Shown here: positions 22,428-37,262 of the stretch, piece by piece
Layout of the letters: every line of letters begins with the position of its first letter
How positions within the stretch are numbered: position 1 is the stretch's first letter
NCBI GenBank assembly: GCA_026391255.1
Contig: JAPLDU010000087.1
Location: 348 to 64,347, forward strand
Source of the DNA: Bacteroidia bacterium
Lineage (GTDB): Bacteria > Bacteroidota > Bacteroidia > Bacteroidales > JAPLDU01
DNA: 64,000 bases
Reading direction: 5' to 3'
Translations under genes and position numbers: made by a program
The notes under the pieces: generated by a model
What the model was told of the DNA's origin: nothing
Database searches by the model: none
What the model saw: the letters and a program-made list of their open reading frames with translations, nothing else

Positions 22428-22453
22428 ATTATGAAAGTATTTGTAAATTACCA

Positions 22454-22651
22454 TCTTATTCCTGAAATCTTGACGCGTTTTGGCAAAAAATTCCAAAAGA
22501 CAAAAGACAAATAACAAATAATAAACAATATCAAAATTTCAAATACAAAACAGACTATTTTGAATTTGTCATTTTGTTGATTGATATTTATTTGTAATTT
22601 GTATTTTGAGATTTGTGATTTCTTGTTTGGTTCTGGCTTGTCCAGGTTAGG
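22454..22651 (+). mobile_element. MITE-like element family 1, copy 1 (~200 bp, long A/C-rich then T/G-rich hairpin arms)
   Basis: Conserved ends cttatt.ctgaaatcttgacgcgttttggcaaaaaattccaaaa ... gagatttgtgatttcttgtttggttctggct.gtccaggttagg are shared by 4 copies. Confidence 0.85.
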
Positions 22652-22711: not shown

Positions 22712-23950
22712 TCAGAAAAAATAATATACAGCCAGCAGTGCCCGCAGGTTGCCGACTTCCTTGGTATTCAGTACTTTTCCCTGGGGATCGGAATGGCCAT
22801 AGGCAGCAACAGTATATTCCAGTTCGCCTGCAAACCGCATCCTGCCTGAGTTGACAATAATACGCGGAGATATTCTGTACAAGTATTTTATATCTATACC
22901 ACGGATGAAATCACCACCGGTAAAATAATCTACAGCTCCCAGGTTTTCAGTGTACCCAAGGAACAAACCTCCCTGTATCTTTTCGCCGTTTGTATTCATA
23001 TCTGCCCATACAGAAAAGCAGTTAATGGTAGTGTATTCAAGGTCATTGTGATTAATTCTGATGGTATCGTTGGGATCGGGAGTTTTAAAGGCATATCCTC
23101 CGAGCATGGTCAGGTCATAGAGATTCTGACCGGTCACTCCCATACATTTGAAAGTGAGAAAAGGTGACTTATATTTGAGATAAGCCAAATATGAAATTCC
23201 TTTAACTTTTTCCCGGGTCATATAAAAGCTGTCGGTTTCAAGCCGGGGTAAAAGTTCCTTGTATCCACCGCCAATACCGGCCAGAAATTCAGTTCCTGTT
23301 TCTTTGTCGGTGAGTTTATATTGCAGTTGAAGCTGAATATCCGGTAACCCTGAGTTTCTCAGGGACGCAGATCCTCCGGGGCTGGTAAAATCACGCTGTG
23401 AGAGTAAGGCAGCAAGAAATGTGATATCACCTAATGACTGGTTCAGCCTGATTTGCGGGTTTCGGGAATAAGGCTGGAAAGGAGCTCCGTTATTGAAGGA
23501 AATTACTCCGGGCATACAATCGGTATTGAACATCGGGTGCCATGTCTGACCAATGAGTAATTCTGTAGTTTTCCAGTTCAGTTTTACATATGCTTGTCTC
23601 AGACTGAATGTATTGATGCCGGCATCTGAGGTACCGGAATATTCACCTTCTATCAATGCAGAAGTCTTTGCCCCGAAAGCATCAGGACCGGTGATATTAC
23701 CGGTAATTCCTGATTGGATGGAAAGCATATTGAAACCGGCTGTTGCATTTGCATCTTTACCATTCACATCAAGTAATTCGTTCCTGGGATACAACAGGAA
23801 CTCACCCTCACGAAAGTTCACAGTCTGACGGCTGTCAAAGAAAATATCATTTTTCACATAGCCGCTGAAACTGATCCCGAACTTTTTTTCTTCCTGCGAA
23901 AACAGCCAGAGCGGAAGCATAAAAACAATAATAAAAAATAGTTTTTTCAT
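22712..23950 (-). CDS. Outer-membrane porin-like beta-barrel protein
   Basis: Signal peptide MKKLFFIIVFMLPLWLFSQ. Long alternating-strand pattern. C-terminal LLAVYYFF (aromatic terminal residue typical of OMPs). Confidence 0.6.
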   Translation of the reverse strand: MKKLFFIIVFMLPLWLFSQEEKKFGISFSGYVKNDIFFDSRQTVNFREGEFLLYPRNELLDVNGKDANATAGFNMLSIQSGITGNITGPDAFGAKTSALIEGEYSGTSDAGINTFSLRQAYVKLNWKTTELLIGQTWHPMFNTDCMPGVISFNNGAPFQPYSRNPQIRLNQSLGDITFLAALLSQRDFTSPGGSASLRNSGLPDIQLQLQYKLTDKETGTEFLAGIGGGYKELLPRLETDSFYMTREKVKGISYLAYLKYKSPFLTFKCMGVTGQNLYDLTMLGGYAFKTPDPNDTIRINHNDLEYTTINCFSVWADMNTNGEKIQGGLFLGYTENLGAVDYFTGGDFIRGIDIKYLYRISPRIIVNSGRMRFAGELEYTVAAYGHSDPQGKVLNTKEVGNLRALLAVYYFF

Positions 23951-24036
23951 CATTAATAGTTTATTGGTTATTTGAATTGATTGCAATTGCGTCTGTTGCG
24001 TTTTTAGCGTTAAATAAATAGGAATGTCAGGTCAAT

Positions 24037-24771
24037 TCATGATTTTGACCTGCGGAACCGTGTCCTGGTTTTGGCATCCATCTTTTCCGTTGCATATTGT
24101 ATGATCAGGCGGGGAGCAGTATCTTTCCATTTGTACAGGAAATCTTCGGTCAGAACGGGATGTATTTTCCATGCCTCGCGCAGGAACCAACCCATTCCCT
24201 GGTGAACCACTCTCTCTTTGTCCATCATCAGTGGTTCGGTGAGTTTAAGGAGTTGACCGCATTCAGCTCCAGATTTTAAATGTTTGATCAGGCTTACCGG
24301 GACAGCCCTTCTCCTGAACCTGGATGCAGAGGTGACCCAATCACTGAAATCTATCGGAACAATTATTGATTTTTTCAGGAATACAGATAATATATCACCG
24401 CAAATGGCATCGCAATGGGCCCAGTTGTTTACCCCGTGTTCAAACCATGAAGCAATCCCCTGAAAAACCGTTTTATCATATTTTTTTGGTATTGACCGCA
24501 ACAGGCAGAGTGCCATGGAACCTTCTTCATACCTGCCATTACGGAATAAGTGGTCACCCGCCCTGAGGATGACTTCAGGGATCAGATCATTGTTATCGAG
24601 AATTCCGGCACATTCCTGTTCCAATAGTTCCCGGGATACCCCCCAGGCATTGTATTCTTCCTTAAAATACCGGGAGTACTTTTTTACCAGTGCAATATCT
24701 CCGTGAGTACTGCAGAAAGCATTTATTTCAGCCGATAATTGATGTTCATTCATAACCGGAATTGAAATCAA
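24037..24771 (-). CDS. DNA alkylation repair enzyme family (AlkD-like HEAT-repeat) protein
   Basis: NWAHCDAICGDIL, RFRRRAVPVSLI and HQGMGWFLREAWKIHP...FL resemble conserved blocks of the PF08713-type family. Overlaps the upstream fnr-like gene by 4 nt. Confidence 0.6.
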   Translation of the reverse strand: MISIPVMNEHQLSAEINAFCSTHGDIALVKKYSRYFKEEYNAWGVSRELLEQECAGILDNNDLIPEVILRAGDHLFRNGRYEEGSMALCLLRSIPKKYDKTVFQGIASWFEHGVNNWAHCDAICGDILSVFLKKSIIVPIDFSDWVTSASRFRRRAVPVSLIKHLKSGAECGQLLKLTEPLMMDKERVVHQGMGWFLREAWKIHPVLTEDFLYKWKDTAPRLIIQYATEKMDAKTRTRFRRSKS

Positions 24772-25445
24772 CCTGCAATGCTGATCTTCTCAAGACGCTG
24801 AAAGTCAACTATCTCAATTTCTTTATTGTTAATGTTGATGATGCCTTCGTTCTTGAACTCGATGAGTATCCGGGTGGTCCATTCTTTTGAAAGTCCGGCC
24901 AGTTCAGACAGCTCCTGCCTGGTAAGTACCATATTAAATAAGGGTTTCTGAAAAACAGCTTTTGATAAATACAGCAGTGATTCTGCAATCCTTCCATGCA
25001 TCTGTTTACTTGACAGACTCATGAACTTATTATAAATACCAATGGTTCTTATTGAAAAATCCCTGATGAACTCATTGGCAAATAACCTGTTTTTATAGAC
25101 TAATTCCTTGAATGCTTCCATCTCGATCATACAGGCGCTGGAATCAGTCAGGGTTGCCAGGGAAAAGTGATGTTTTTTATCAACGTACATTCCAGGTCCT
25201 GCAATTAATTCAAAGGGTTGAATAATTTTGAGGATCAGGTCCCTTGAATTATACCCTTCCAGGTAAATCTTGGAAAGACCGGATGTGAGGATTAAAACAT
25301 GAGTGGAAGGTGACCCTTGTTTGAAAACCACTTCTTTTGCATGATACCTGACTTCAATTTTATTTTTCATGATCATTTCCAGGTCTTCAGGATTTAACAA
25401 CCTGAAAACAGAACACTTGGAAACACAATCAGTACAATATTCCAT
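24768..25445 (-). CDS. Crp/FNR family transcriptional regulator with N-terminal Cys triad (FNR-type Fe-S sensor candidate)
   Basis: cNMP-binding-like beta-roll. C-terminal HTH RQELSELAGLSKEWTTRILIEFKNEG. Cys4/7/11 (CTDCVSKC) plus Cys in SSACMIEME, at the position of E. coli FNR Cys122. Confidence 0.8.
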   Translation of the reverse strand: MEYCTDCVSKCSVFRLLNPEDLEMIMKNKIEVRYHAKEVVFKQGSPSTHVLILTSGLSKIYLEGYNSRDLILKIIQPFELIAGPGMYVDKKHHFSLATLTDSSACMIEMEAFKELVYKNRLFANEFIRDFSIRTIGIYNKFMSLSSKQMHGRIAESLLYLSKAVFQKPLFNMVLTRQELSELAGLSKEWTTRILIEFKNEGIININNKEIEIVDFQRLEKISIAG

Positions 25446-25494: not shown

Positions 25495-25656
25495 GTCTGT
25501 CCATTATTATATTAAATATTTTGATTGACGAATATCGATTAACGATTTTAGATTTTTGACGTTATCATTAAATCAGATGATTACACATACTTCATAAATC
25601 AAAAATCGTTGATCCTTGTTCTTAAATCAAAAAAGAACGACTTTAAAGACAAACAC
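25495..25656 (+). mobile_element. MITE-like element family 2, copy B, flanked by 6-bp direct repeat TATATA
   Basis: Imperfect terminal inverted repeats gtctgtcc.../...gacaaacac. TATATA at 25489-25494 and 25657-25662. Internal TTGAC-GAAT-ATCGA at 25535-25548. Confidence 0.8.
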
Positions 25657-25879: not shown

Positions 25880-26962
25880 ATGAGAAGGATTTTATACCTG
25901 GTTTTAGCCAATGCTGTGATGTTGCTGATGGTTTATTCATTTTCAGCGTCATTGTCAAGCTGTACAAAAGAAGGACCTACCGGAGCAAATGGTCAGAACG
26001 GAACTGATGCAAATTCATGGTGTGTGATGTGTCATACTACTGCAAACATGGATGCGGTTCAAGCAGAATATGTCACATCAAAACATGGTATTGCTGCAAC
26101 AGTTGCTGAAGGCAACCGCAATACATGCGCAGCATGTCACTCCAACGAAGGATTCAATGAAGTATGGAGAACCGGATGGGATACCACGGCTGTTAATAAT
26201 GCCATTGCCACCCCGATTGGTTGTCCGACATGTCACGGTGGTGTTCATTTGAATTTTGACACTACCCAGGGATTCGACTATGCTCTTCAGTTTACTGATC
26301 CATTCAGGGAGAGGTTCGATTCATCAACGATCAGTAACCTGCATGGAACCAGCTACCTGTGTGCAAAATGTCACCAGGCAAGACTTCCATCTCCATTCCC
26401 TACATCACTGTTACTGACCGATTCACTTAAGCCTTCCAGTTACCGTTACGGAACCCATTATGGTGTTATGGCAAATATGTTGTCAGGTCAGGGCCCCTTC
26501 AAATTCCCCGGTAGTTTGCCTTATGATAATGATCAGCATACCTCTGTTGCCCAGTGTGCTGACTGCCACATGGCAAAAGCAAACGGAACCCAGTCAGGAG
26601 GCCATACCTGGAGAATGAAAAATGACGATGGCAGCGAACATCTTGATGGTTGCAAAAAATGTCACCCCAGCGCTACAAGTTTTGATATCAACGGCAAACA
26701 GACTGAAATCGCCGCCCTGATCAAACAACTGGGAGATAAACTCCACGCCATTACCGTTAATGGAGTTACTTTACTTGAAGTTGACAATACTGGTGCATAT
26801 ACAGGTCAGATATGGCCAAGTACTACTACAGCTGTTATGATACCTAACAAATATGCTGCAGCAATGCTCAATTTCCAGTTTGCCATGAGAGACAAGAGTA
26901 ACGGAGTTCATAATTATAAATTTACCAAAGCTTTACTTCAGAATACAATCGATGCCATATAA
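25880..26962 (+). CDS. Hexahaem c-type cytochrome lipoprotein
   Basis: Lipobox SLSSC. Six CXXCH motifs (CVMCH, CAACH, CPTCH, CAKCH, CADCH, CKKCH). Gly-rich GPTGANGQNGTD linker after the lipid Cys. C-terminal NFQFAMRDKSNGVHNYKF helix resembles the NrfA/multihaem-family ENSxGFHN element. No CXXCK. Confidence 0.85.
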   Translation: MRRILYLVLANAVMLLMVYSFSASLSSCTKEGPTGANGQNGTDANSWCVMCHTTANMDAVQAEYVTSKHGIAATVAEGNRNTCAACHSNEGFNEVWRTGWDTTAVNNAIATPIGCPTCHGGVHLNFDTTQGFDYALQFTDPFRERFDSSTISNLHGTSYLCAKCHQARLPSPFPTSLLLTDSLKPSSYRYGTHYGVMANMLSGQGPFKFPGSLPYDNDQHTSVAQCADCHMAKANGTQSGGHTWRMKNDDGSEHLDGCKKCHPSATSFDINGKQTEIAALIKQLGDKLHAITVNGVTLLEVDNTGAYTGQIWPSTTTAVMIPNKYAAAMLNFQFAMRDKSNGVHNYKFTKALLQNTIDAI

Positions 26963-26983
26963 TCTGAAAGTACAATAATAAAA

Positions 26984-27017
26984 AAGGCTTTAGCTTACCG
27001 AAGTTAAAGCCTTTTTC
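26984..27017 (+). terminator. Rho-independent terminator-like hairpin after the hexahaem gene
   Basis: 13-bp stem aaggctttagctt / aagttaaagcctt (one G-U pair), loop accg, followed by tttcattt. Confidence 0.55.
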
Positions 27018-27053
27018 ATTTAACTATTAATTTGATAAAAAAAACTTACTAAA

Positions 27054-27413
27054 ATGAAGAAATATAGATACTTAATTCTGTTTGTATTCATATTACCGGT
27101 GATAATTGTGTCCTGCGAATATGAATTTGTTCAGCCGATAAAGGTCACACTGCCTAATAGTGTCAGCTATGCTACTGATATTGCACCTATTTTTGATGCA
27201 AATTGTACGGCTTGTCATAATGGCAGTTATAAGTTTGATCTCCATACAGCAAATTCTTACAACAACCTGAAAAATGGCGGTTATATCACTCCGCCTGATG
27301 CTACCTGCCAGCTTTATGTAAATGTAAGTACCGGCCATAGCGGTGTTGAACTCAGCGCTGCCGACAAAGCATTAATTCTTAAATGGCTTCAGGACGGCGC
27401 TCTGAATAATTAA
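27054..27413 (+). CDS. Small monohaem cytochrome c lipoprotein (PSCyt1-like domain)
   Basis: Lipobox IIVSC followed by EYE. Single CTACH inside the pattern IAPIFDANCTACH...LILKWLQDGA, reminiscent of the Planctomycete cytochrome C (PSCyt1) domain. Confidence 0.7.
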   Translation: MKKYRYLILFVFILPVIIVSCEYEFVQPIKVTLPNSVSYATDIAPIFDANCTACHNGSYKFDLHTANSYNNLKNGGYITPPDATCQLYVNVSTGHSGVELSAADKALILKWLQDGALNN

Positions 27414-27496
27414 TTTCAGAAGAATAAATAATGTCAATTATTAACAATTGCCTGACTATGATGGAAAATCAGCAGCCGGGCTATAAAGATATTAAA

Positions 27497-28369
27497 ATGA
27501 AAACAAGAAAAAATATTTTGTTATTTCGGGTGATATTCAGCGTGATGCTCGTCGTGTCTTCTTTTCGGGGCTTTAGCCAGGATGCAGGGGACGATGGGAA
27601 AAAACCCGTTCGTGATATGTATTCCTGTACAATGCTGGGTGATAACCAGACCACCATAAATCCTGTTAAAGGTGCATTTGAACTGTTGATTCAACACAGG
27701 TTCGGGCAGATAAAACAACTGACCGATTTATATGGCATTTATGCGCCGTCAAATATCCGTGTCGGATTCGACTATGGACTCAGCGATAAGGTAATGGTTG
27801 GGTTCGGAACTGAGAAAAACAACAAACTGCAGGAATTCGACCTGAAATGGGCTATTCATCAGCAAAACAGAGATGGCAGCATGCCGGTGTCTGTTTCATT
27901 ATTTGTGAACACCGCAATTGATGCCCGGAGTAAAGATGCGTTTGGGAGCAATTACGATTTTACACACAGGTTTACTTATTTCAGCGAATTAATCATTGCC
28001 AGGAAATTCAATGATATCTTATCCCTGCAGATAGCGCCCAATTTCTCCCATTTTAACTCGGTGGATTCATTATACGAACATGATGTAATAGGCACATCCA
28101 TTGGCGGCAGAATTAAATTTTACAATGAAATGTCTTTGATTTTCGAATATGATCAACCTTTTAATATTAAAGGATTACATGAAAGTCTGAATCCGTTGAA
28201 TCCTTATAAACCGGATATGGTGTTTGGATTTGAAGTTGCCACCAGTACTCATACATTCCAGGTGTTCGCAACTACTGCTGATAATATCGTAGCTCAGAAA
28301 AATTATGCATATAATTCCAAAGAGTTCAAAGATCTTATGTTAGGATTTAATCTTACAGTAAGACTGTAA
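27497..28369 (+). CDS. Outer-membrane beta-barrel protein (~290 aa, roughly 12-16 strands)
   Basis: Signal peptide at the internal Met (MKTRKNILLFRVIFSVMLVVSSFRGFSQ). Repeated amphipathic strands (IRVGFDYGLS, VMVGFGTE, VSVSLFVNTAI, LSLQIAPNFSHF, MVFGFEVATSTHTFQVFATT, LMLGFNLTVRL). Confidence 0.65.
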   Translation: MKTRKNILLFRVIFSVMLVVSSFRGFSQDAGDDGKKPVRDMYSCTMLGDNQTTINPVKGAFELLIQHRFGQIKQLTDLYGIYAPSNIRVGFDYGLSDKVMVGFGTEKNNKLQEFDLKWAIHQQNRDGSMPVSVSLFVNTAIDARSKDAFGSNYDFTHRFTYFSELIIARKFNDILSLQIAPNFSHFNSVDSLYEHDVIGTSIGGRIKFYNEMSLIFEYDQPFNIKGLHESLNPLNPYKPDMVFGFEVATSTHTFQVFATTADNIVAQKNYAYNSKEFKDLMLGFNLTVRL

Positions 28370-28377
28370 AACTTTTG

Positions 28378-28494
28378 GTATCAGGTATCAAGTAGCAGGT
28401 ATCAGGTATCAGGATTAGTTATGAGTTATGAATTATGAGTAAACATTGTATTTACTGCTTACTATTCACTATTCACCACTCACTATTCACTACT
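28378..28494 (+). repeat. Composite minisatellite, locus 5 (ATCAGGT/ATCAAGT x5; TTATGAG x3; CACTATT-type x5), inside the cytochrome operon
   Basis: Direct reading. Lies between the barrel gene stop and the heptahaem gene start. Confidence 0.9.
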
Positions 28495-28549
28495 TGTGTC
28501 TATAGCCAAATACCTGAATAGTCAGAAAAAAATATTATATACAGTAAAT

Positions 28550-29548
28550 ATGAAAATTCTATATGAGAAGTGCCCTAACGCAACTTCGGGTTTGATTACG
28601 GCATTCCTCGTATTCTCTTTTTTTGCTGCCTGGTCACAGAATAATTCCGGAACAGTCAGGAAATTCGAAAACAAAGAAGATAACAGCAAGTGTTTCAAAT
28701 GTCACTTTAATAATAATTATACCGTAACAAGTCCTGACTCAAGCAAGATCATTACACGTAAAATGTACATGGATCTTCAGATTGACTCAAATGTTTATTA
28801 TCATTCTAACCATCGTTATTTCAAATGTATTGACTGTCACTCGGATGAGTATTTTACTTATCCCCATAATAACGACCTCAGGTTTGAGGATATCTCGACC
28901 TGTCTTGATTGCCATGGGGGTGATCCGAAATTTGAGAAGTTTAATTTTGAAAAGATCACAGAGGATTTTAAATATAATGTGCATTCTGAGAAACACAACA
29001 GTACATTTTCCTGCTGGAGTTGCCATGATCCTCATACCTATACTACTCATGCCCGTACAGACAAAAATATTTTAGAAGTAGTGGCATATGATAACAATCT
29101 CTGCCTTCAATGCCATGCGAACAAACGAAACTACCGGCTGATCATCGATAAAGATAATCCGAACCTGGTACAGAAACACGACTGGCTACCCAATCAGGCA
29201 CTTCATTTTAAGAATGTCAGATGTATTGAATGCCACACAAAGAAAAGCGATACCCTGCTTGTTTCACATCATGTGATGGAAAAGAAAGACGCAGTTCGTG
29301 CCTGTGTTGAATGCCACAGCCGGAATTCGTTGCTCATGGCAACATTGTACAAATACCAGTCAAAGGAAGAAATAAGCAGGAATGGTTTTCTAAATTCCAT
29401 CATCCTGAACAGATCATACGTTATTGGTGCCAACCGCAACTATTACCTTAACATGATCAGTCTTGCAATTCTCTACATGGTTATATCGGGGATCATTATT
29501 CATGCACTGCTGAGAGTAAAAGCATATAAAAGATACCATGGAAAATAA
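28550..29548 (+). CDS. Heptahaem c-type cytochrome with C-terminal TM anchor
   Basis: ATG at 28550 gives a signal/anchor GLITAFLVFSFFAAWSQ. Seven CXXCH (CFKCH, CIDCH, CLDCH, CWSCH, CLQCH, CIECH, CVECH). C-terminal helix YYLNMISLAILYMVISGIIIHALL. Confidence 0.85.
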   Translation: MKILYEKCPNATSGLITAFLVFSFFAAWSQNNSGTVRKFENKEDNSKCFKCHFNNNYTVTSPDSSKIITRKMYMDLQIDSNVYYHSNHRYFKCIDCHSDEYFTYPHNNDLRFEDISTCLDCHGGDPKFEKFNFEKITEDFKYNVHSEKHNSTFSCWSCHDPHTYTTHARTDKNILEVVAYDNNLCLQCHANKRNYRLIIDKDNPNLVQKHDWLPNQALHFKNVRCIECHTKKSDTLLVSHHVMEKKDAVRACVECHSRNSLLMATLYKYQSKEEISRNGFLNSIILNRSYVIGANRNYYLNMISLAILYMVISGIIIHALLRVKAYKRYHGK

Positions 29549-30155
29549 GATATATTTTTATCCTGTGTGGCTGCGTTTGTGGCATTGGTCAAATGCCTTG
29601 CTAATCCTGGTATTGATTGTGACCGGGTTAAGCATGCAGTATTCTTCTTTTGAATCTCCTCATATTCCATTCAGTCTGGCTGTCACAATTCATAATATAT
29701 GTGGCATAATACTTGTTTTCGGCTATCTGGTTTTTATCACGGGAAATATCATTTCAAAAAACGGAAGATATTACAAAATGAATTTAAAAGAGATTGGCGG
29801 ACAAATTCTGGTGCAGTTCAGATATTACCTGTACGGAGTTTTCAAAGGAGACAAAGTTCCTTTTCCGGTGAACATTGAAAGAAAATTTAACCCCTTGCAA
29901 AAGTTTTTTTATGTAATGATCATGTACATCGGAATACCTTTACTGATCATATCCGGGATAGGACTAATTCTTCCGCAGTTCATTGTCAGCCGGGCGCTTG
30001 GTGTAAGCGGCCTTCTTCTTACCAGCCTATTACACATATGTGTCGGATTTTTTGTTTCCATATTTTTGATGATTCATATTTATTTTTGCACTTTTGGAGC
30101 CAGCATCACCAGTAATTTCAAAGGGATGTTCAACGGATGGCAGGAAACACATTAA
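29538..30155 (+). CDS. Dihaem b-type cytochrome, FdnI/HydC/PhsC-like (4 TM)
   Basis: RLWHWSNALLIL (TM1 His), TIHNICGIIL (TM2 His), LLHICVGFF...MIHIYF (two His in TM4): the FdnI-type four-His pattern. Overlaps the heptahaem gene by 11 nt. Confidence 0.8.
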   Translation: MENKIYFYPVWLRLWHWSNALLILVLIVTGLSMQYSSFESPHIPFSLAVTIHNICGIILVFGYLVFITGNIISKNGRYYKMNLKEIGGQILVQFRYYLYGVFKGDKVPFPVNIERKFNPLQKFFYVMIMYIGIPLLIISGIGLILPQFIVSRALGVSGLLLTSLLHICVGFFVSIFLMIHIYFCTFGASITSNFKGMFNGWQETH

Positions 30156-30206
30156 TATTCAAAATAAAAAATTAATTTTTAAATATTTAAATAATCAGGA
30201 GGTAAT

Positions 30207-30605
30207 ATGAAATCATTAAAAGTGTTATTTGTTATGTTAACAGTGAGTGCATTTACTCTTGCACTTGTTTCATTTGTTCCCGGTAAACCATGGGAAGTTC
30301 CAAAGGAATATAAAACAATGAAGAACCCGGTTAAAGCCGGTGACGAAGCAATTAAAGCAGGAAAAGCAAAATACAGCACAACCTGTAAATCCTGCCATGG
30401 CCCGAAAGGTCTTGGAGATGGTCCCAAATCCAAAACACTTAAAACTCCATCAGGTGATTTTTCAGTTGACCTGAAAGGACAAGCAGATGGCGAACTTTTT
30501 TACAAAACAAAAACAGGACGTGGTGATATGCCAGCTTATGATAAGAAAGTGACCGACGAAGACATCTGGAGCATCGTTCATTACCTGAGAACATTTGCTA
30601 AATAG
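30207..30605 (+). CDS. Periplasmic class I monohaem cytochrome c
   Basis: Signal peptide. CKSCHGPKGLGDG. Distal Met motif GRGDMPAY. Paralogue of 32954-33376. Confidence 0.85.
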   Translation: MKSLKVLFVMLTVSAFTLALVSFVPGKPWEVPKEYKTMKNPVKAGDEAIKAGKAKYSTTCKSCHGPKGLGDGPKSKTLKTPSGDFSVDLKGQADGELFYKTKTGRGDMPAYDKKVTDEDIWSIVHYLRTFAK

Positions 30606-30764
30606 TGTCTGTCCATAATATTCAATATTTTGATTGACGAATATCAATTAACGATTTTAGATTTTTGATGTTATCATTAAATCAGATGATTACACATACT
30701 TCATAAATCATAAATCGTTAATCCTTGTTCTTAAATCAAAAAGAATGACTTTAAATACAAGCAC
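30605..30764 (+). mobile_element. MITE-like element family 2, copy C, flanked by 6-bp direct repeat TAAATA
   Basis: TAAATA at 30599-30604 and 30765-30770. The element's first base completes the TAG stop of the cytochrome c gene. Internal TTGAC-GAAT-ATCAA at 30634-30647. Confidence 0.8.
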
Positions 30765-30811
30765 TAAATAATTTTCAGGCATTGATATCCCTGGATCTTT
30801 CATGATCTGAT

Positions 30812-30845
30812 AAAAAACCTGGTTGTTTCAGCCAGGTTTTTTTTA
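30812..30845. terminator. Bidirectional terminator-like hairpin (A6-cctgg-loop-ccagg-T8)
   Basis: aaaaaacctgg ttgtttcag ccaggtttttttt, between the two convergent cytochrome gene sets. Confidence 0.5.
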
Positions 30846-30880
30846 TAAATGTATATTTGTTTTTATTATTGAATTAGTAT

Positions 30881-31087
30881 TGTATTTCTGAAATCTTGAC
30901 ACGTTTTGGCAAAAAATTCCAAAAAACAAATCACAAATCACAAATAAATATCAATCAACAAAATAACAAATTCAAAATAGTTTGTTTCGTATTTGAAATT
31001 TTGTCCGCCGTGGCGGATTGTTTCTTATTTGTGATTTGTTTTTTGAGATTTGTGATTTCTTGTTTGGATCTGGCTCATCCAGGTTAG
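30881..31087 (+). mobile_element. MITE-like element family 1, copy 2 (core inverted relative to other copies, extra tccgccgtggcgga mini-hairpin)
   Basis: Same termini as copies 1 and 4. The internal ~64 bp caaataaatatcaatcaacaaaataacaaattcaaaatagtttgtttcgtatttgaaattttg is the reverse complement of the copy 1 core. It abuts the stop codon of the 31089 gene. Confidence 0.85.
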
Positions 31088-31088
31088 G

Positions 31089-32594
31089 TTACTGGTATAA
31101 ACTTGCATGGCAATCGGAACAGGGAGAAGTTCTCCATTCATCTTTGATATCAACAGGATGCCGGAACTCAAGGTTATCAAGCACTGAAACAGATTGTAAT
31201 GAACCTTTATTCCCCTGGGCAAAAATGGTATGGCATAAATTGCAATCCTTTGAAATGATCTTCCCGTTATCTCCTTTCATGGTACCGGAGTGGCACCTGA
31301 AGCAACCCTTTGATTCTAAGTGGCCGATATGGTCGGGATATTTATCATAGCTGACCTTCATTTTGGGAAATGTATTACTGGAAAATCCATCCTGGACTGC
31401 AGCTATGGCATTGTTAATATCTGTCTTCCGGCTATTGTAAATATCAGCGTGATTCGCATGATAGAAACCATTGATACTATCTGCAATGAAAGCTAATGCA
31501 GAATCTTTATTGGTAAAGGGATTCTTGAGAACCTGCATAGAAATGTATTTGATAAATGGAATATCCGTGGCAATGCTCCCTGATACAAGGGCATTATCAA
31601 CATAATACGGAGGTGATTTATATTTATGAGATGGTCTGTTATGACAATCCATGCAATCCATTACCCTTGCATTCAGGGTATTTTTAAGACTATCAGCCAG
31701 GGGCTCTTCCTCATCATTATAAATCGTCACTTTGCCGGTTTTAAGATTGGTATATTTTACCCATGAAATGCTTTCGCGGGTCGGATCGGCAGTCATATAT
31801 TCAATCTTCACGTCCTGGTTGATATGCCAGTGAATTCCTTCGTTCAGGCCAAGGGCGCTAAACTGGGGACCAATCTTCATCTGCATATATATATCCCATT
31901 CAGTGTTCAGAGAATCAGCAAGAAAATTCTTCTGGATTTGTAACTTACGGGCATAAAATTTCTGTGGCCAGTGACATTTTTCGCAGGTCTCCCGTGCCGG
32001 ACGCAGATTAACCAGTGGTGTCTCAATCGGACGGGGATATTTGTTAAAAATAGCTGCATAAACCTGGTATAACCCCGATAATTTGGAACGTACATACCAG
32101 TCGGCTCCTTCTCCCACGTGGCATTCAACACAAGCAACCCGGGCATGCGACGAATTCTGGTAAGCCGTGAATTCAGGCTCCATAATATTATGACAGAGTT
32201 TGCCACAGAACTGGACAGATTCGGAATAATGAAATGCTTCGTAACTGCCAATACTTGAAGTAATAAGAAATACCGCAGTTGAAACAGTAAAAATGATAAA
32301 TGCATTGCGGTGTCTTTTATCGTTCAGATCAATCGAAGGCAATGACCTGCCATACCTGTCCTGCTCAATTCTTTTATCCTTCTTTCTCTTGATCAGCATT
32401 CCGATCGGGATCAGTACCAGCCCGGTAACTAAAAATCCCGGGATAACCAGGTAGAGAAATAAACCCAGGTAAGTGTTTCCTGTCTTAAATATCTCAAGAA
32501 TAACAAATAAAATAATGATAAGCAGGAAGCTGATTGCAGCAATGGACGAACCAATAATGGTGATCCAGTTGTATACTGATTTTGGTAACTTCAT
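31089..32594 (-). CDS. Membrane-anchored multihaem cytochrome, NapC/NirT-like with 3 N-terminal TM helices (ImcH-like architecture)
   Basis: Three TM helices in the first ~117 aa. NapC-like FCGKLCHNIMEPEF...HARVACVECH. Six CXXCH (CVECH, CEKCH, CMDCH, CFRCH, CNLCH, CSDCH) plus one CX3CH (CGKLCH). Confidence 0.8.
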   Translation of the reverse strand: MKLPKSVYNWITIIGSSIAAISFLLIIILFVILEIFKTGNTYLGLFLYLVIPGFLVTGLVLIPIGMLIKRKKDKRIEQDRYGRSLPSIDLNDKRHRNAFIIFTVSTAVFLITSSIGSYEAFHYSESVQFCGKLCHNIMEPEFTAYQNSSHARVACVECHVGEGADWYVRSKLSGLYQVYAAIFNKYPRPIETPLVNLRPARETCEKCHWPQKFYARKLQIQKNFLADSLNTEWDIYMQMKIGPQFSALGLNEGIHWHINQDVKIEYMTADPTRESISWVKYTNLKTGKVTIYNDEEEPLADSLKNTLNARVMDCMDCHNRPSHKYKSPPYYVDNALVSGSIATDIPFIKYISMQVLKNPFTNKDSALAFIADSINGFYHANHADIYNSRKTDINNAIAAVQDGFSSNTFPKMKVSYDKYPDHIGHLESKGCFRCHSGTMKGDNGKIISKDCNLCHTIFAQGNKGSLQSVSVLDNLEFRHPVDIKDEWRTSPCSDCHASLYQ

Positions 32595-32812
32595 TTGTGT
32601 AAAATTATAGATATCAACTAATTATAGATTGTTGAAAATAAATTACGTACAAAAGTCAAAAATCTGGTTAATGAAATAATTATCTGTGTTTTACTATAAA
32701 TAAGAGTGTAAAAATAAATATTAATAATATAACATCATATGATCTGTTAAATGTTTGAAAACCTGATTTGATCTGATCATTCTGATGAAGTGAAATTTAC
32801 AATGTAACTGAC

Positions 32813-32840
32813 AAAAAAAAGACGCTTTGATGAGCGTCTT
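32813..32840 (-). terminator. Rho-independent terminator after the monohaem cytochrome gene
   Basis: The minus strand reads aagacgct-catcaa-agcgtctt followed by T8. Confidence 0.6.
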
Positions 32841-32953
32841 CTTTTTACTGACATTAATCCCCAATGTTATTGCCTTACAAAGGATATTCAGATTAAGATT
32901 CCAATATCTTGTGTTAAATATTCATTGGCTGATCAGATCAGGAATTAAATAGA

Positions 32954-33376
32954 TTAAAGTGACCGGATATAATTGACCAGGAGCCAGATATCCGTTTCAT
33001 CAGCCATCTTTTTCTCAAAGGCCGGCATTTCACCTTTTCCGGTTTTTGTCTTGTAGAAAATCTCACCATCAGTCTGAGCCTTAAAGGTTTTAGCTGAGAA
33101 ATCACTGCAATGTGTTTTCAGGGTAGCTGCCTTTGTGCCATCGCCCAATCCTTTTTTACCGTGGCATGAAACACAATGTTTATCCCACAGGCTTTTGCCG
33201 ACTTTAAGATTTGCCGGATCTGACTTGGTTGGGTTTTTCATGTTTTTATATTTGTCGGGTACTGTCCATCCTCCGGGTTGCTGATAAGACGCGACAAATG
33301 ACATCAGGCCAATGTTAACCAACAGGATAGCAAAGATCCTGAATAAGTTACTTTTTAATACTGTTTTCATATTCAT
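32954..33376 (-). CDS. Periplasmic class I monohaem cytochrome c (paralogue of 30207-30605)
   Basis: Signal/anchor. CVSCHGKKGLGDG. GKGEMPAF. Shared blocks W.VP..YK.MKNP.K and GE.FYKTKTG.G.MPA..KK. Confidence 0.85.
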   Translation of the reverse strand: MNMKTVLKSNLFRIFAILLVNIGLMSFVASYQQPGGWTVPDKYKNMKNPTKSDPANLKVGKSLWDKHCVSCHGKKGLGDGTKAATLKTHCSDFSAKTFKAQTDGEIFYKTKTGKGEMPAFEKKMADETDIWLLVNYIRSL

Positions 33377-33506: not shown

Positions 33507-34439
33507 TTACACAGCCTCCAGCTTTTCTACCTGAGAAATTTCTTTTAACTTTTCTATCTTTTTTCCTTCTCTTCTGATTCTTGAAATGTTAAAAACCACG
33601 TAAAGGTAATGAGCCCAGACACCGGTAAGCATTATTATCAGGGTAACGATCATCCAGATGGGAGCAATTTCAGTCCACAATTCTCTTTTAACAAACGGAC
33701 TGACAGGGTTTGTCGGAACTCCCCATTTTTTTATTTCGCCGGATTCAACATTACCATAATCGTCATTATCATCTACCCTGGCCAGCAAAAAAATATTACC
33801 CAATGAATCTCCGGGAAATACTCCTTTAAAATCCATGCTGCAATAACCTTTTGGGTCAGTTGTGCCATCTCCGATCTTCAGGTTAGTAAACATTCTTTTG
33901 ATCATAAAGTTCACAGGCAGTTCATTTACTGGTAAAGTATCTCCTTTTTCACCCAGCTCAAAGGCATGCAGGCTGATTGATTTAATGGAATCTTTTTCAG
34001 AAAATTTCAGGAGAAGGTTGAGATCTCTGACTGATATTGAAGATTCGGTCTTTTCGACGGAATCACAGCCTTCATATACATTTCTGAATAATAAAGTGCC
34101 CTTTTCATCTTTTGGTAATTTTACAGCGGGTTGAATAATGAGCTTAGCGGATCCTTGTTTATCACTGGTCAAAATTCCAAGTTCCTGCTCTCCGCAATAG
34201 AATTTTAGCTTACAGTATGACAATGGGAATATCTGCCTGTTAATAATAAAAGAGGCAGTGGCAGACAAAGTTTTAGATCCGTCCGGGTTTTTCAGATAGG
34301 TAAATGCAAGAATAGGAGAATGTTTTTCTGTTTTTTCCTTATCCTGGCCGGATGCTGAAAACCCCGGCCAAACCAGAAAAGCCAGCACCATGGCTGAAAT
34401 GATATATATCGTTTTCATTGCTGATAATAGGAATTTCAT
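33507..34439 (-). CDS. Orphan bitopic protein (N-terminal signal/anchor, ~230-aa periplasmic domain, C-terminal TM and charged tail), no haem motif
   Basis: MKTIYIISAMVLAFLVWPGFSASG. C-terminal IAPIWMIVTLIIMLTGVWAHYLYVVF followed by RIRREGKKIEKLKE. Start overlaps the NrfD-like stop by 4 nt. No family recognised. Confidence 0.55.
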   Translation of the reverse strand: MKFLLSAMKTIYIISAMVLAFLVWPGFSASGQDKEKTEKHSPILAFTYLKNPDGSKTLSATASFIINRQIFPLSYCKLKFYCGEQELGILTSDKQGSAKLIIQPAVKLPKDEKGTLLFRNVYEGCDSVEKTESSISVRDLNLLLKFSEKDSIKSISLHAFELGEKGDTLPVNELPVNFMIKRMFTNLKIGDGTTDPKGYCSMDFKGVFPGDSLGNIFLLARVDDNDDYGNVESGEIKKWGVPTNPVSPFVKRELWTEIAPIWMIVTLIIMLTGVWAHYLYVVFNISRIRREGKKIEKLKEISQVEKLEAV

Positions 34440-35761
34440 TCACTTAATAATATTTCATCATTTGTATCTTCGCTTTCATCCACTATCTCAGAGATTGAAA
34501 CAATAGGGACTATCTTTGATGCAAGCATAAACAGCATGCAAAAAACTGATACGCCCGCGCCGGTAAGGGATAGTTCCACCCAGGTGGGCTTATAAAGATT
34601 CCATGCAGGACGGATATCCTGGATGGGCAAATAAGGTGTTTCAAGTGTGGGAATAACAATGAGGTAACGGTTCACCCAAAGACCCAGTAATGCTATAACA
34701 GCCGCGATACTGATATTTCTGATAGTTCTCAGTCGTGGAAATCCAACCACAATCAGTGGTACAATGATCCCAATGTAGTTGGAAAAAATAAATAACCAGT
34801 AAAAATCGGAAAACAATTTATCTATCAGTATTTTATCCATTCTTACAGATCCATACCATTTGGTCAGGTAGTCGCTGAAGGTGAAATAACCATAAAAAGC
34901 AGCAACCACAAGCAACAACACGCCAACATTGATAAAATGTTTTTTTGTGATATATTCTTCAAGATGGTAAACTTTGCGGAAAATCCACATTAAAATAATT
35001 ACAACACCGGTACCGGAATACACGGCAGCAATAACAAAGTACGGTCCGAAAATGGTACTGTGCCAGCCGGGCTGAAGTGTAACACCGAAGATCCAGGCCA
35101 GCACGGAATAAACGATGATTGCAATGGCAATGATCATGGCCGCCATTACATTCTTTGAAAATTCAATAATGTGACGCTGGCTGGGAGTATCATAATATCC
35201 CAAGGCAAGGGTTTTGTAAATTTTCTTTCTTGATGGACTTACTTTAAGCCCATCGAAATCACGCAGTTTGGCAAAATCCTGGATAAACGACAAATAAAGA
35301 AAGATAAGACATCCGACAATATCGGTAGAAATTGCAATCACGTCCCAGGTAATCGGAGACTGAATTCTTGGATATAATATCAGATAACCAAGGCGGTCGA
35401 GTCTTCCGATGCAGAACAGGATGAAAACCGGGCCTATGAACAGCGAAATAACGGTTGTAAGTTCTGTGATCCTGATAATGGGTTTACGCCATTCTGCCTT
35501 AAAAAGATGAAGTACTCCGGAAATCAGGGCGCCTGCATAGCTCAGTCCCATAAAAAAAATAAAATTAACGATATATAAGCCCCACACAACATTATCCCGC
35601 ATCCCGGTGACAATATGACCTTTGGTGATCTGGGTGATAAGACCAAATATACCCAGTGCGAAAAAGGACAGGAAAACAGCAAACAGTAATTTCCATGATT
35701 TGCTGGTATTTTCAATCTCTGGGGTTAAAGCTTTAATATGTTTTTCAAGATTATTTGTCAT
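34436..35761 (-). CDS. NrfD/PsrC-family integral membrane quinone-interacting subunit
   Basis: 441 aa, about 10 TM helices, polytopic pattern typical of NrfD/PsrC/ActC. Overlaps the upstream FeS gene by 11 nt. Confidence 0.75.
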   Translation of the reverse strand: MTNNLEKHIKALTPEIENTSKSWKLLFAVFLSFFALGIFGLITQITKGHIVTGMRDNVVWGLYIVNFIFFMGLSYAGALISGVLHLFKAEWRKPIIRITELTTVISLFIGPVFILFCIGRLDRLGYLILYPRIQSPITWDVIAISTDIVGCLIFLYLSFIQDFAKLRDFDGLKVSPSRKKIYKTLALGYYDTPSQRHIIEFSKNVMAAMIIAIAIIVYSVLAWIFGVTLQPGWHSTIFGPYFVIAAVYSGTGVVIILMWIFRKVYHLEEYITKKHFINVGVLLLVVAAFYGYFTFSDYLTKWYGSVRMDKILIDKLFSDFYWLFIFSNYIGIIVPLIVVGFPRLRTIRNISIAAVIALLGLWVNRYLIVIPTLETPYLPIQDIRPAWNLYKPTWVELSLTGAGVSVFCMLFMLASKIVPIVSISEIVDESEDTNDEILLSE

Positions 35762-36722
35762 TTTTCAGCTTTTTTTGATTTTTCATATAAGGAGTGTTTT
35801 TATAACGTGCCAGTACCTTTTTGTCAAGATCATCAAGCCCGCTTTCAAAGGGGAAAAGTCTTTCGGTAGGTGGCAGGTAATACACGCTTGGTTCAGTTCC
35901 GAGTTGTTCAAGGTAACGGAATGCACTCCTGTCCTTTACCAGCTGGCTAAATGGGATGGTATCGGTACCGTTTGTCACGGTATCTTCAATGATATCGCCA
36001 AAGAAAATAACTCCCATCGGGCAGGCCTGTACGCAACGCGGAAGCTCATTTTTCCTGAGTAAGTCCGCGCAGAAAATACATTTACCAACGGTGCCTTCAA
36101 CTTGCGGAATTCCTGTTTCGGGAGAATATTTGACTTTCTTGTCCTCTTCAGAAACTTCCGGATCTTTCCAGTTAAAAACCCTGACAGAATAGGGACAGCC
36201 AGTCATGCAGAATTTACATCCGATACAGCGCCCGGAATCAATAAGAACAATACCATCACTCCTTTTATAAGTGGCTCCTACCGGGCAGACACTGGCACAC
36301 ATGGGGCTGTCGCAATGAAAACAGGGGCGGGGAAACCAGTATGGACTCTGTTTGGAGCTGTCCTGCATCAGGTACACTTTCATCCATTCATGATCACTGG
36401 GTAAATGATGTCCAACCTTACAGGCTTCAACACATTTCCGGGCATTTTTGCACCTGGAAAGATCAATGACCATCACAAACTTACGATGCGGAATTCCCTG
36501 GTGCGAAGCTTTGGGAGAAACATATTCTTTGCCCGCTTTAATACTGGCCTTGCTTATTTCAACTAATTTTCCGTCAGGAGTCAGCACTTTAATATTGCTC
36601 CCCGGATCATTTTCAGGGGTCTCGGAAAGGGCAGTCTTGATCATTGATCCGGTTACCAGTGTCCCTCCTGCCAAAAGTCCGAGCTTCAGAAAGTCCCTCC
36701 TGCTATTTTTGTTTTTACTCAT
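35751..36722 (-). CDS. Tat-exported four-cluster iron-sulfur protein (NrfC/HybA/PsrB-like)
   Basis: Twin-arginine signal SRRDFLKLGLLAGG. Four Cys groups, including CFHCDSPMCASVCP, CIGCKFCMTGCP and CIFCADLL...CVQACP. Confidence 0.85.
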   Translation of the reverse strand: MSKNKNSRRDFLKLGLLAGGTLVTGSMIKTALSETPENDPGSNIKVLTPDGKLVEISKASIKAGKEYVSPKASHQGIPHRKFVMVIDLSRCKNARKCVEACKVGHHLPSDHEWMKVYLMQDSSKQSPYWFPRPCFHCDSPMCASVCPVGATYKRSDGIVLIDSGRCIGCKFCMTGCPYSVRVFNWKDPEVSEEDKKVKYSPETGIPQVEGTVGKCIFCADLLRKNELPRCVQACPMGVIFFGDIIEDTVTNGTDTIPFSQLVKDRSAFRYLEQLGTEPSVYYLPPTERLFPFESGLDDLDKKVLARYKNTPYMKNQKKLKNDK

Positions 36723-36956: not shown

Positions 36957-37150
36957 AGTCTGTCTTTAAAGTCAATAATACTGATTTAAGAATATCGATT
37001 ACTCACAAATATTTATTATTTTTTAAGGTGTTCATGAGATCGCTTCGCTAAGTTAACGAATTATGATTTTAGAAGTAGCTGATAATCTTAAATCTAAAAT
37101 CGTTAATCCTTGTTCTGAAATCAAAAGTACTGACATTATGGACAAAAACT
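36957..37150 (-). mobile_element. MITE-like element family 2, copy D (diverged, opposite orientation)
   Basis: Ends agtctgtctttaaagtc... and ...aatctaaaatcgttaatccttgttctgaaatcaaa...ggacaaaaac match the reverse complement of copies B and C. The centre has diverged. Confidence 0.65.
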
Positions 37151-37262
37151 AATTAATAATAAGATATTTATCAGTCGTCAAAGTAACTGAGCTTTTTACT
37201 TGTAACCATTAAAAATGACATGACAATTGAAAGTGATTTGCAATAAATATATCAGTCAAAAT

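Follow-up and report, generated by a model that had tools for sequence, protein, structure and literature searches.

We analysed a 64,000-nucleotide (nt) stretch of DNA from a Bacteroidia bacterium (contig JAPLDU010000087.1, positions 348 to 64,347; hereafter the window), in which a gene for a small lipoprotein with one c-type haem motif is directly followed by a gene for an outer-membrane beta-barrel of the DUF5777 family (Table 1). A previous reading of the letters alone, here called the sequence-only reading, had proposed that this 119-amino acid (aa) lipoprotein, with its one CTACH motif, and the signal-peptide barrel of ~290 aa behind it are a split form of Cyc2, the fused cytochrome-porin of iron oxidizers. 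Both open reading frames (ORFs) lie where it had placed them. The barrel ORF opens at ATG 27431 (312 aa); gene callers and homologues favour ATG 27497 (MKTRK..., 290 aa). The gap between the haem gene and the barrel gene is accordingly 17 or 83 nt, as had been stated. Six cytochrome c genes, with 22 CxxCH motifs and one CX3CH motif among them, are packed into 7.5 kb at this place (25880-33376). The pair, which is conserved and widespread, probably represents an undescribed cytochrome-barrel unit that follows a Cyc2-like design principle and lies in a cluster of the extracellular electron-transfer (EET) type.

The lipoprotein signal of the 119-aa protein ends in ...IIVS-C21, and its one haem site is C51-T-A-C-H55. 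Since C21, C51, C54 and H55 are invariant across 77 syntenic homologues, CTACH is not a chance CxxCH. The candidate distal ligand, His95 in the window protein, is a His in 73 of the 77 homologues and a Met in 4, and from the alignment it is likely to be the sixth haem ligand. Because such a candidate ligand is conserved, the protein is best read as an electron carrier rather than a catalyst. In the AlphaFold2 (AF2) model (predicted local distance difference test, pLDDT, 90), residues 21-38 form an unstructured tether, after which come four helices that carry CTACH; the C-terminus reads ...LKWLQDGALNN. The tether begins C-E-Y-E-F-V-Q-P in the window and is rich in Pro and acidic residues. Family-wide it has E at position +2 (59/76), Y at +3 (54/76), I at +6 (57/76) and P at +8 (57/76), so that the consensus is C-E-Y/W-x-x-I-x-P, with a median length of 19 residues (16% Pro, 21% acidic). 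Judged from these counts, the tether is conserved far beyond what a generic sorting signal would show. The sequence-only reading had compared C-E-Y-E to the surface-export signals of Bacteroidota lipoproteins. The acidic segment is indeed present throughout the family, yet C-E-Y-E-F matches none of the three signals compared, C-X-K-(D/E)2, SDDDD and SDDFE.

A word-index homology search with the 119-aa protein returned only the protein itself, and the family was therefore gathered through the syntenic ORFs and a profile built from them. No Pfam family scored above its cut-off with the window protein: PccH (PF22297) reached 16.6 bits, under its cut-off of 24.4, and PSCyt1 (PF07635) was not listed. 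The profile of the 77 syntenic homologues matched the C-terminal haem domain of hydrazine synthase alpha (2.6e-6), PccH (4rlr, 2e-4) and, over the whole domain, FoxE (5mab, 3.6e-4), and Pfam PSCyt1 and PccH domains are present in more distant relatives. With the AF2 model, the only fold matches were the hydrazine synthase haem domain and PccH, both weak. The lipoprotein shares with the PccH, FoxE and PSCyt1 type of domain a similar start (...F..DI.PI....C..CH) and a similar end (...WI..GA). Unlike them it is lipidated and tethered, it lies under every Pfam cut-off, and it has a His, rarely a Met, where PSCyt1 has the Met ligand of its MPP motif.

The match of the barrel protein to PF19089 scores 227 bits (cut-off 23.1; E 2.8e-67) and spans positions 4-244 of the 247 in the profile. 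Behind a signal peptide, the mature chain is predicted to begin with a Gln (probably Gln28) that is invariant, and it ends in a C-terminal beta-signal, which reads ...GFNLTVRL in the window and GFN(I/L)TVR(F/L) in the family, with F in most homologues. The AF2 model, computed from a 38-row alignment (pLDDT 86, predicted template-modelling score 0.81), has 12 transmembrane strands in ~263 mature residues. In line with the earlier argument, which spoke of a decahaem protein, such a barrel lacks the size to sheathe a multihaem one. The fold neighbours are generic outer-membrane proteins of 12-14 strands (NanC, with a template-modelling score of 0.68 on the target, FapF, Tsx, COG4313 and OmpG), together with the oligogalacturonate porin; MtrB and OprO/OprP are not among the top 50 fold matches in the PDB. 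There is no sequence relative of the barrel in the PDB and no model for it in NCBIfam, and in the literature searched we found no paper naming DUF5777. The family comprises 1,889 cluster representatives at E <= 1e-3 and 578 at E <= 1e-30.

Under the usual topology, which puts the N-terminus and the short turns in the periplasm, the long loops are extracellular. Of these, L1-L4 match the strands in conservation (mean column identity 0.63-0.86), and L5 alone is variable. The set of residues facing the lumen is polar or charged. The N-terminal segment is also conserved (PVR, L-x-D-N-Q-T), and residues 41-60, which precede strand 1 and contain L-x-D-N-Q-T, are placed by the model outside the barrel wall with a pLDDT of 93-95; they may be a plug or rim element. 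His67, His185 and His252 were considered as haem or metal ligands and dropped, His67 and His252 being kept also in a DUF5777 subfamily with no cytochrome nearby (see below).

A scan of species-representative genomes found the barrel encoded in at least 545 genomes. The best 80 are nearly all Bacteroidota (Bacteroidales, Marinilabiliales, Saprospiraceae, Lentimicrobiaceae), with a few labelled Chlorobiota and one Verrucomicrobiota, and include the cultured strain Carboxylicivirga linearis FB218. The same neighbourhood was found in three complete or near-complete genomes and on one 127-kb contig. When the window proteins were compared by phmmer with all ORFs of 85 loci, the lipoprotein gene stood directly 5' of the barrel gene wherever upstream DNA exists, and in all 52 loci with full flanks. 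The synteny that the sequence-only reading had asked about is therefore present: the 86 pairs found have a median gap of ~19 nt, and in all 86 the two genes are separate. We conclude that lipoprotein and barrel form a real, conserved two-gene unit.

Several variants of the pair were observed. Saprospiraceae and some other lineages have a CX4CH haem site (e.g. C-N-Q-S-G-C-H) in place of CXXCH in the lipoprotein (L001 5604-5990, L003 5589-5999, L016, L019, L024, L029, L031, L069 and L078), and a few of these proteins have a Met instead of the candidate distal His. Six loci carry, at the same place 5' of the barrel gene, a tandem two-domain, two-haem lipoprotein of ~210 aa (L035 7351-7983, L058 5402-6040, L066, L081, L083 and L084), and proteins P0122 and P0123 resemble it. 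L043 (2718-5219) and L047 (164-1559) have, a few kb upstream of the main pair, another lipoprotein-barrel pair that is paralogous to it; in L043 this second pair stands behind a 324-aa protein whose three haem domains are PSCyt1-like (CX4CH in two of them, CXXCH in one). Protein P0237 (615 aa) has two DUF5777 barrels in tandem in one chain.

Two of the 270 barrel-family proteins carry a CxxCH motif. These are P0361 and P0362, of 407 aa, which come from two contigs and fall into the same 90% cluster; each has a signal peptide, a class I cytochrome c domain with one CTACH and a DUF5777 barrel. Residues 6-127 of P0361 are 32% identical to the class I cytochrome c encoded at 30207-30605 in the window (E 9e-24), and the barrel half is 27% identical to the window barrel (E 8e-30). 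The haem half of the fusion is thus a homologue of the class I cytochrome c of the window and not of the lipoprotein. The fused versions that the sequence-only reading had suggested looking for do exist, but they join the barrel to another cytochrome than the one it had in mind. No lipoprotein-barrel fusion was found, PF19089 being present in 0 of 93 small-family proteins. P0361 is not a read-through artefact, since its domains stand in the reverse of the order in which the genes usually lie and no signal peptide occurs inside the chain. A scan of metagenomes recovered no close relative of P0361; its independent support comes only from the second contig.

At locus L086 (5433-7947) a fused cytochrome c-DUF5777 gene is part of a minimal, all-monohaem set of three genes among housekeeping genes. 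The order is a Reeler-domain protein (CALCH) sorted by the type IX secretion system (T9SS), the fusion, and a 136-aa lipoprotein of the small family, which has a Met (MPLG) ligand motif. In a further DUF5777 subfamily a class I cytochrome c gene lies directly 3' of the barrel gene, with NrfCD nearby. In the YceI-linked subfamily (L087 392-2035) the barrel gene directly follows a gene of the YceI (polyisoprenoid-binding) family, and there is no cytochrome nearby. The barrel motifs HRF and G-x-H-x-F-Q are invariant family-wide. Since three of the four sampled subfamilies are linked to c-type cytochromes, the barrel family is not one that is normally unlinked to them, a finding that would have spoken against the sequence-only reading. 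We infer that DUF5777 barrels work physically with monohaem cytochromes in most sampled lineages.

We judged the likeness to Cyc2 by its published signature motif, strand number and fold class. According to Keffer et al. 2021 (PMC8406198), Cyc2 has a Sec signal, one CXXCH and a fused 16-strand OprO/OprP-like porin, and is at least 365 aa long; a Cyc2-specific motif, (A-x-)P-x-F-A-R-[Q/K]-[T/Y], lies 5 aa upstream of CXXCH. PXFAR[Q/K][T/Y] was found in 0 of 130 small-family proteins and 0 of 48 class I cytochromes of the clusters, and not in P0361. The only near-equivalent in the window lipoprotein is P-I-F-D-A-N-C, with 3 aa from motif to Cys. Scans with Pfam and NCBIfam gave no Cyc2-named match. 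The lipoprotein does have a single CXXCH. The pair is not a single polypeptide: the two ORFs are in different frames and are separated by a stop codon as well as by the intergenic gap. Measured against this published definition, the pair falls outside the Cyc2 family.

The resemblance is of another kind. Like Cyc2 of Acidithiobacillus, Mariprofundus and Gallionellaceae, the pair combines one c-type haem with a small outer-membrane barrel. The total size is also alike (119 + 290 = 409 aa, against about 400-450 aa), the haem part comes first, as the sequence-only reading had pointed out, and DUF5777 has a single-chain version in P0361. The differences are that the pair consists of two genes, that its haem protein is a lipoprotein of the PSCyt1/PccH type, that the modelled barrel has 12 strands where 16 are predicted for Cyc2 and is not OprO/OprP-like, that its context is typical of outward EET, and that the unit contains third and fourth cytochromes (class I c and hexahaem). 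Of the split-Cyc2 proposal there remain a conserved pair, a link to cytochromes and a natural fusion; what it lacks is the motif, the strand number and the kind of haem protein. In the sense of design, the logic may still be called Cyc2-like by analogy, with one haem at the mouth of a small barrel and no sheathed multihaem wire, although none of the tests run (motif, strand number, fold class) shows the parts of the pair to be homologous to Cyc2.

The genes around the pair are listed in Table 1. In the hexahaem lipoprotein encoded just upstream, the six CxxCH are kept in 51 of 65 homologues. The profile of this family matches OcwA (6i5b, 1.8e-14), 6qvm (1.6e-12), which we take to be OmhA of Carboxydothermus, NrfA (2e-11) and MtrC (7e-6), as well as several NrfA and octahaem nitrite reductases. 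The hexahaem protein is thus a distant member of the family of OcwA, NrfA and the octahaem nitrite reductases, with OcwA as its best solved match, and a candidate terminal or surface reductase on the strength of these profile matches. OcwA is the cell-surface terminal reductase of Thermincola potens. Unlike OcwA and NrfA, the hexahaem protein has six haems rather than nine or five, is lipid-anchored in a diderm, and is without the catalytic CXXCK haem motif. A function as nitrite reductase was considered and rejected, because CXXCK is absent and the best solved match is an EET reductase. In many homologues the lipidated Cys is followed by a collagen-like Gly-x-x run, C-E-G-P-x-G-P-x-G-K-D-G-x-N-G-T...; the window copy reads C-T-K-E-G-P-T-G-A-N-G-Q-N-G.

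Table 1. Genes of the cytochrome-barrel cluster in the window, in order of position.
Feature	Position	Strand	Size, evidence and remarks
CRP/FNR-family regulator, divergent	24768..25445	-	Pfam cNMP_binding and HTH_Crp_2; NCBIfam FNR-like
Hexahaem c-type cytochrome lipoprotein	25880..26962	+	360 aa; lipobox ...LSSC, Gly-rich linker; six CxxCH
Monohaem c-type cytochrome lipoprotein	27054..27413	+	119 aa; ORF and sequence
Outer-membrane beta-barrel, DUF5777	27497..28369	+	290 aa; Pfam PF19089 and AF2 model
CbcA-like heptahaem cytochrome c	28496..29548	+	N-terminal signal, one C-terminal transmembrane helix; start maybe ATG 28550
CbcB-like dihaem cytochrome b, four-helix	29538..30155	+	11-nt overlap with preceding gene
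Class I monohaem cytochrome c, periplasmic	30207..30605	+	132 aa; Pfam Cytochrome_CBB3/Cytochrom_C
ImcH-like inner-membrane cytochrome	31089..32594	-	501 aa; Pfam Cytochrom_NNT; NCBIfam NrfH-like
Second class I monohaem cytochrome c	32954..33376	-	140 aa; Pfam Cytochrome_CBB3/Cytochrom_C
Conserved 310-aa protein	33507-34439	-	No Pfam family; with NrfC/NrfD, second quinol module 33507..36722
NrfD-like membrane protein	34436-35761	-	Pfam NrfD
NrfC-like 4Fe-4S protein	35751-36722	-	Pfam Fer4_11

Downstream of the barrel gene lies a pair resembling the Geobacter CbcBA quinol oxidase. The first protein has seven CxxCH, as have 54 of 55 homologues, and a C-terminal hydrophobic helix is visible in its translation. 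The second matches Pfam Ni_hydr_CYTB (8.7e-24) and the NCBIfam model of PhsC-type 'thiosulfate reductase cytochrome b' (9.4e-51); CbcB homologues are typically annotated as thiosulfate reductase cytochrome b (Joshi et al.). The architecture is that of Geobacter CbcBA, i.e., seven haems and a C-terminal transmembrane helix with a dihaem cytochrome b partner, whereas the gene order in the window is A then B. Joshi et al. also reported cbcBA clusters from Prolixibacter, Marinilabiliales and Labilibaculum, all of them Bacteroidetes, and saw in these clusters a possible EET marker. The ImcH-like protein has three hydrophobic helices at its N-terminus and contains a NapC/NirT domain as well as seven haem motifs (six CxxCH, one CX3CH), which is the architecture of Geobacter ImcH (three transmembrane helices and seven haems); ImcH has been reported to be widespread in Bacteroidota. 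The regulator has an N-terminal C-x2-C-x3-C motif that recurs in its homologues, and is probably a redox or oxygen sensor. The 310-aa protein that accompanies the NrfC/NrfD-like pair belongs to a family of ~290-310 aa with a signal peptide and no haem motif, and the window copy has a C-terminal membrane helix; the homologues always follow an NrfC/NrfD-like pair in the loci that carry it.

The window holds every component that was counted in the 52 fully flanked loci. Besides the small lipoprotein, which is present in all of them (52/52), these are any quinol module (48/52), the CRP/FNR regulator (44/52), the hexahaem lipoprotein (42/52), the heptahaem and cytochrome b pair (37/52), the class I cytochrome c (29/52, and directly 3' of the barrel gene in 14), the trio of NrfC, NrfD and 310-aa protein (13/52) and the 500-aa NapC-like cytochrome (10/52). 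In the 13 loci with the trio, it stands in for the CbcBA-like pair directly after the barrel gene. The arrangement recalls MtrCAB, PioAB/MtoAB, Geobacter OmaB-OmbB-OmcB and Ext, in which a barrel gene also lies beside genes for periplasmic and lipoprotein cytochromes, and inner-membrane quinol oxidases feed the module. The clustering with a multihaem lipoprotein and a class I cytochrome c, at the frequencies just given, is shared with the Mtr and Pcc conduits, but a large barrel is not: their barrels have 20-26 strands around a multihaem wire, which a 12-strand barrel cannot sheathe, and the cytochromes most tightly tied to the DUF5777 barrel are monohaem.

We give an even chance to the proposal that lipoprotein and barrel are both fixed components of an electron-transfer module in the outer membrane, which would belong to an EET respiratory chain widespread in Bacteroidota. 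The obligate pairing, the P0361/P0362 fusion, the cytochrome-rich cluster, the conserved loops and polar lumen of the barrel, the FNR-like regulator and metal reduction in Marinilabiliales, where Labilibaculum strains reduce Fe(III) and Mn(IV) via unidentified genes, all support such a module. The cluster seems to encode an entire menaquinol-to-envelope chain, of which only the inner-membrane part had been noticed before. In the chain we propose, menaquinol would be oxidized at the inner membrane by the CbcBA-like pair, the ImcH-like cytochrome or the NrfCD-like module, and the class I cytochrome c (30207-30605) would carry the electrons across the periplasm and dock on the periplasmic face of the DUF5777 barrel. 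The barrel would align it with the monohaem lipoprotein, the tether and the conserved barrel loops making the contact. The next carrier could be the OcwA-like hexahaem lipoprotein; alternatively, small dissolved acceptors (e.g. chelated Fe(III)) could enter the polar 12-strand pore and receive the electrons directly. The FNR-type regulator, the CbcBA-like and ImcH-like quinol oxidases and the OcwA-like hexahaem protein make us prefer outward flow, and the cluster points more to reduction of outside acceptors than to Fe(II) oxidation. More specifically, and tentatively, the DUF5777 barrel with one monohaem cytochrome per face (the periplasmic class I c, and the tethered PSCyt1-like lipoprotein) could be a minimal outer-membrane electron conduit without a sheathed multihaem wire, and so the missing outer-membrane step of both metal and electrode respiration in Bacteroidota and some neighbouring phyla.

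We infer the lipoprotein-barrel contact, the membrane side of the lipoprotein, the direction of electron flow and the substrate, and several points weigh against this proposal. The putative contact between lipoprotein and barrel is deduced from synteny. If one haem sat at either end of a 12-strand barrel, the distance between the two would ordinarily be too great for fast tunnelling, unless each of them is deeply inserted or a substrate or cofactor forms a bridge. The lipoprotein may face the periplasm, given its mismatch with the surface-export signals compared above. The core function of the barrel may be that of a channel unrelated to haem, since the YceI-linked subfamily has no cytochrome, and this subfamily shares the invariant HRF and G-x-H-x-F-Q. 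Electron flow could be inward, because the class I cytochromes weakly resemble Leptospirillum cytochrome 579, which belongs to an Fe(II)-oxidizing chain. Finally, the likeness of the quinol modules to Geobacter CbcBA and ImcH is one of architecture and literature.

Three other explanations were considered. The first, which we regard as unlikely, is that the barrel is a solute channel that admits a soluble acceptor, for which chelated Fe(III), sulfur species and small redox shuttles are examples; all cytochromes would then act in the periplasm, with the lipoprotein on the inner leaflet of the outer membrane. The polar and charged lumen would suit such a channel, as would the specific channels among the fold neighbours (NanC, Tsx, oligogalacturonate porin and COG4313), the cytochrome-free YceI-linked subfamily, and a lipoprotein that mismatches the surface-export signals tested. 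A covalent cytochrome-barrel fusion is hard to square with a passive channel, however, as is the invariable one-to-one pairing with a specific lipoprotein; extracellular loops of such unusual conservation suggest that a partner or site is conserved as well, and the ~20 residues before strand 1 suggest, in the model, a plug (pLDDT 93-95, outside the wall).

Improbable, in our view, is an export or anchoring function, in which the barrel would act like Slam, or like OmpA/C/F with RcsF: the C-E-Y-x-x-I-x-P tether would thread the lumen and display the haem domain on the surface, while other components transfer the electrons. Gene-by-gene pairing of lipoprotein and barrel recalls the pairs of Slam and its substrates. 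A strongly conserved tether of ~19 residues, rich in Pro and acidic residues, is long enough to span the barrel; a generic export signal would be degenerate, which the tether is not, and a 12-strand lumen suits an extended chain rather than a folded domain. Against this, there are DUF5777 subfamilies with no lipoprotein partner, and the L086 barrel is fused to a periplasmic-type cytochrome c instead. Pfam detects only DUF5777 in the window barrel, with no Slam/DUF560 domain, no tetratricopeptide repeat and no extra domain, and the modelled strands number 12 where Slam has 14. The export function also overlaps the electron-transfer proposal and is not wholly exclusive of it.

The least probable of the three is a split Cyc2-type Fe(II) oxidase, in which Fe2+ would enter the DUF5777 pore and be oxidized by the monohaem cytochrome at its mouth, after which class I cytochrome c would take the electrons inward, either to a terminal oxidase or, by way of the CbcBA/NrfCD-like modules, uphill into the quinone pool: the Cyc2 layout of the 407-aa fusion, the match of its haem domain to NCBIfam cytochrome 579 (5e-18; window class I cytochromes 1e-6 to 1e-5), the profile matches of the small protein to the Fe(II) oxidase FoxE and the electron-uptake cytochrome PccH, reports of Cyc2-like genes in metagenome-assembled genomes of Bacteroidota and the presence of the cluster in the aerobic Saprospiraceae are outweighed by the absence of the Cyc2 signature motif wherever tested, a barrel of 12 and not 16 strands with no OprO/OprP-like fold match, scores for cytochrome 579, FoxE and PccH that are all far under the family cut-offs, the lack of oxidase genes in the cluster, and the hallmarks of outward transfer (FNR-type regulator, OcwA-like hexahaem protein, ImcH/CbcBA-like quinol oxidases).

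To our knowledge, the well-studied routes for electrons across the Gram-negative outer membrane are either a large barrel round a multihaem wire (Mtr, Pcc) or the fused Cyc2. If the electron-transfer proposal is true, a 12-strand barrel with monohaem cytochromes would be a third and much smaller route, and the unstudied DUF5777, with ~1,900 sequence clusters, would gain a function. The outer-membrane genes with which fermentative sediment Bacteroidota reduce Fe(III) and Mn(IV) would then be identified, and the small gene with its barrel would be a compact marker for electroactive Bacteroidota in metagenomes. Since cultured carriers exist (Carboxylicivirga species), the idea is directly testable.

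Some further features of the window were noted. Scans for sigma-70 promoters and terminators did no better than chance, the sigma-70 consensus being unsuited to Bacteroidota, and matches to an FNR box (TTGAT-N4-ATCAA), including within the repeat elements described here, were at chance level. In the 126-nt spacer between the barrel and heptahaem genes, 28377-28492 holds three arrays, one after another, each with its own 7-nt tandem repeat (GGTATCA x5.3, AGTTATG x3.4, ACTATTC x4.6), for which phase-variable or regulatory spacing is a possibility. A 128-nt element occurs three times: at 25506-25633, 5' of the hexahaem gene; at 30615-30742, after the class I cytochrome c gene (95% identical); and, more diverged, at 37086-37171, 5' of a second CRP-family gene. 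Inverted and direct copies of a ~200-nt element (22438-22651 versus 30864-31088) lie at both edges of the plus-strand operon. These 128-nt and ~200-nt repeats could be shared regulatory regions or repeats like miniature inverted-repeat transposable elements. On the minus strand, 22712-23986 encodes a 424-aa protein with a signal peptide and the C-terminus ...AVYYFF, likely to be a further outer-membrane barrel; Pfam gives no match for it, and other loci do not keep it beside the cluster. A T9SS sorting domain is encoded at 18939-20591, which agrees with the Bacteroidota origin of the DNA.

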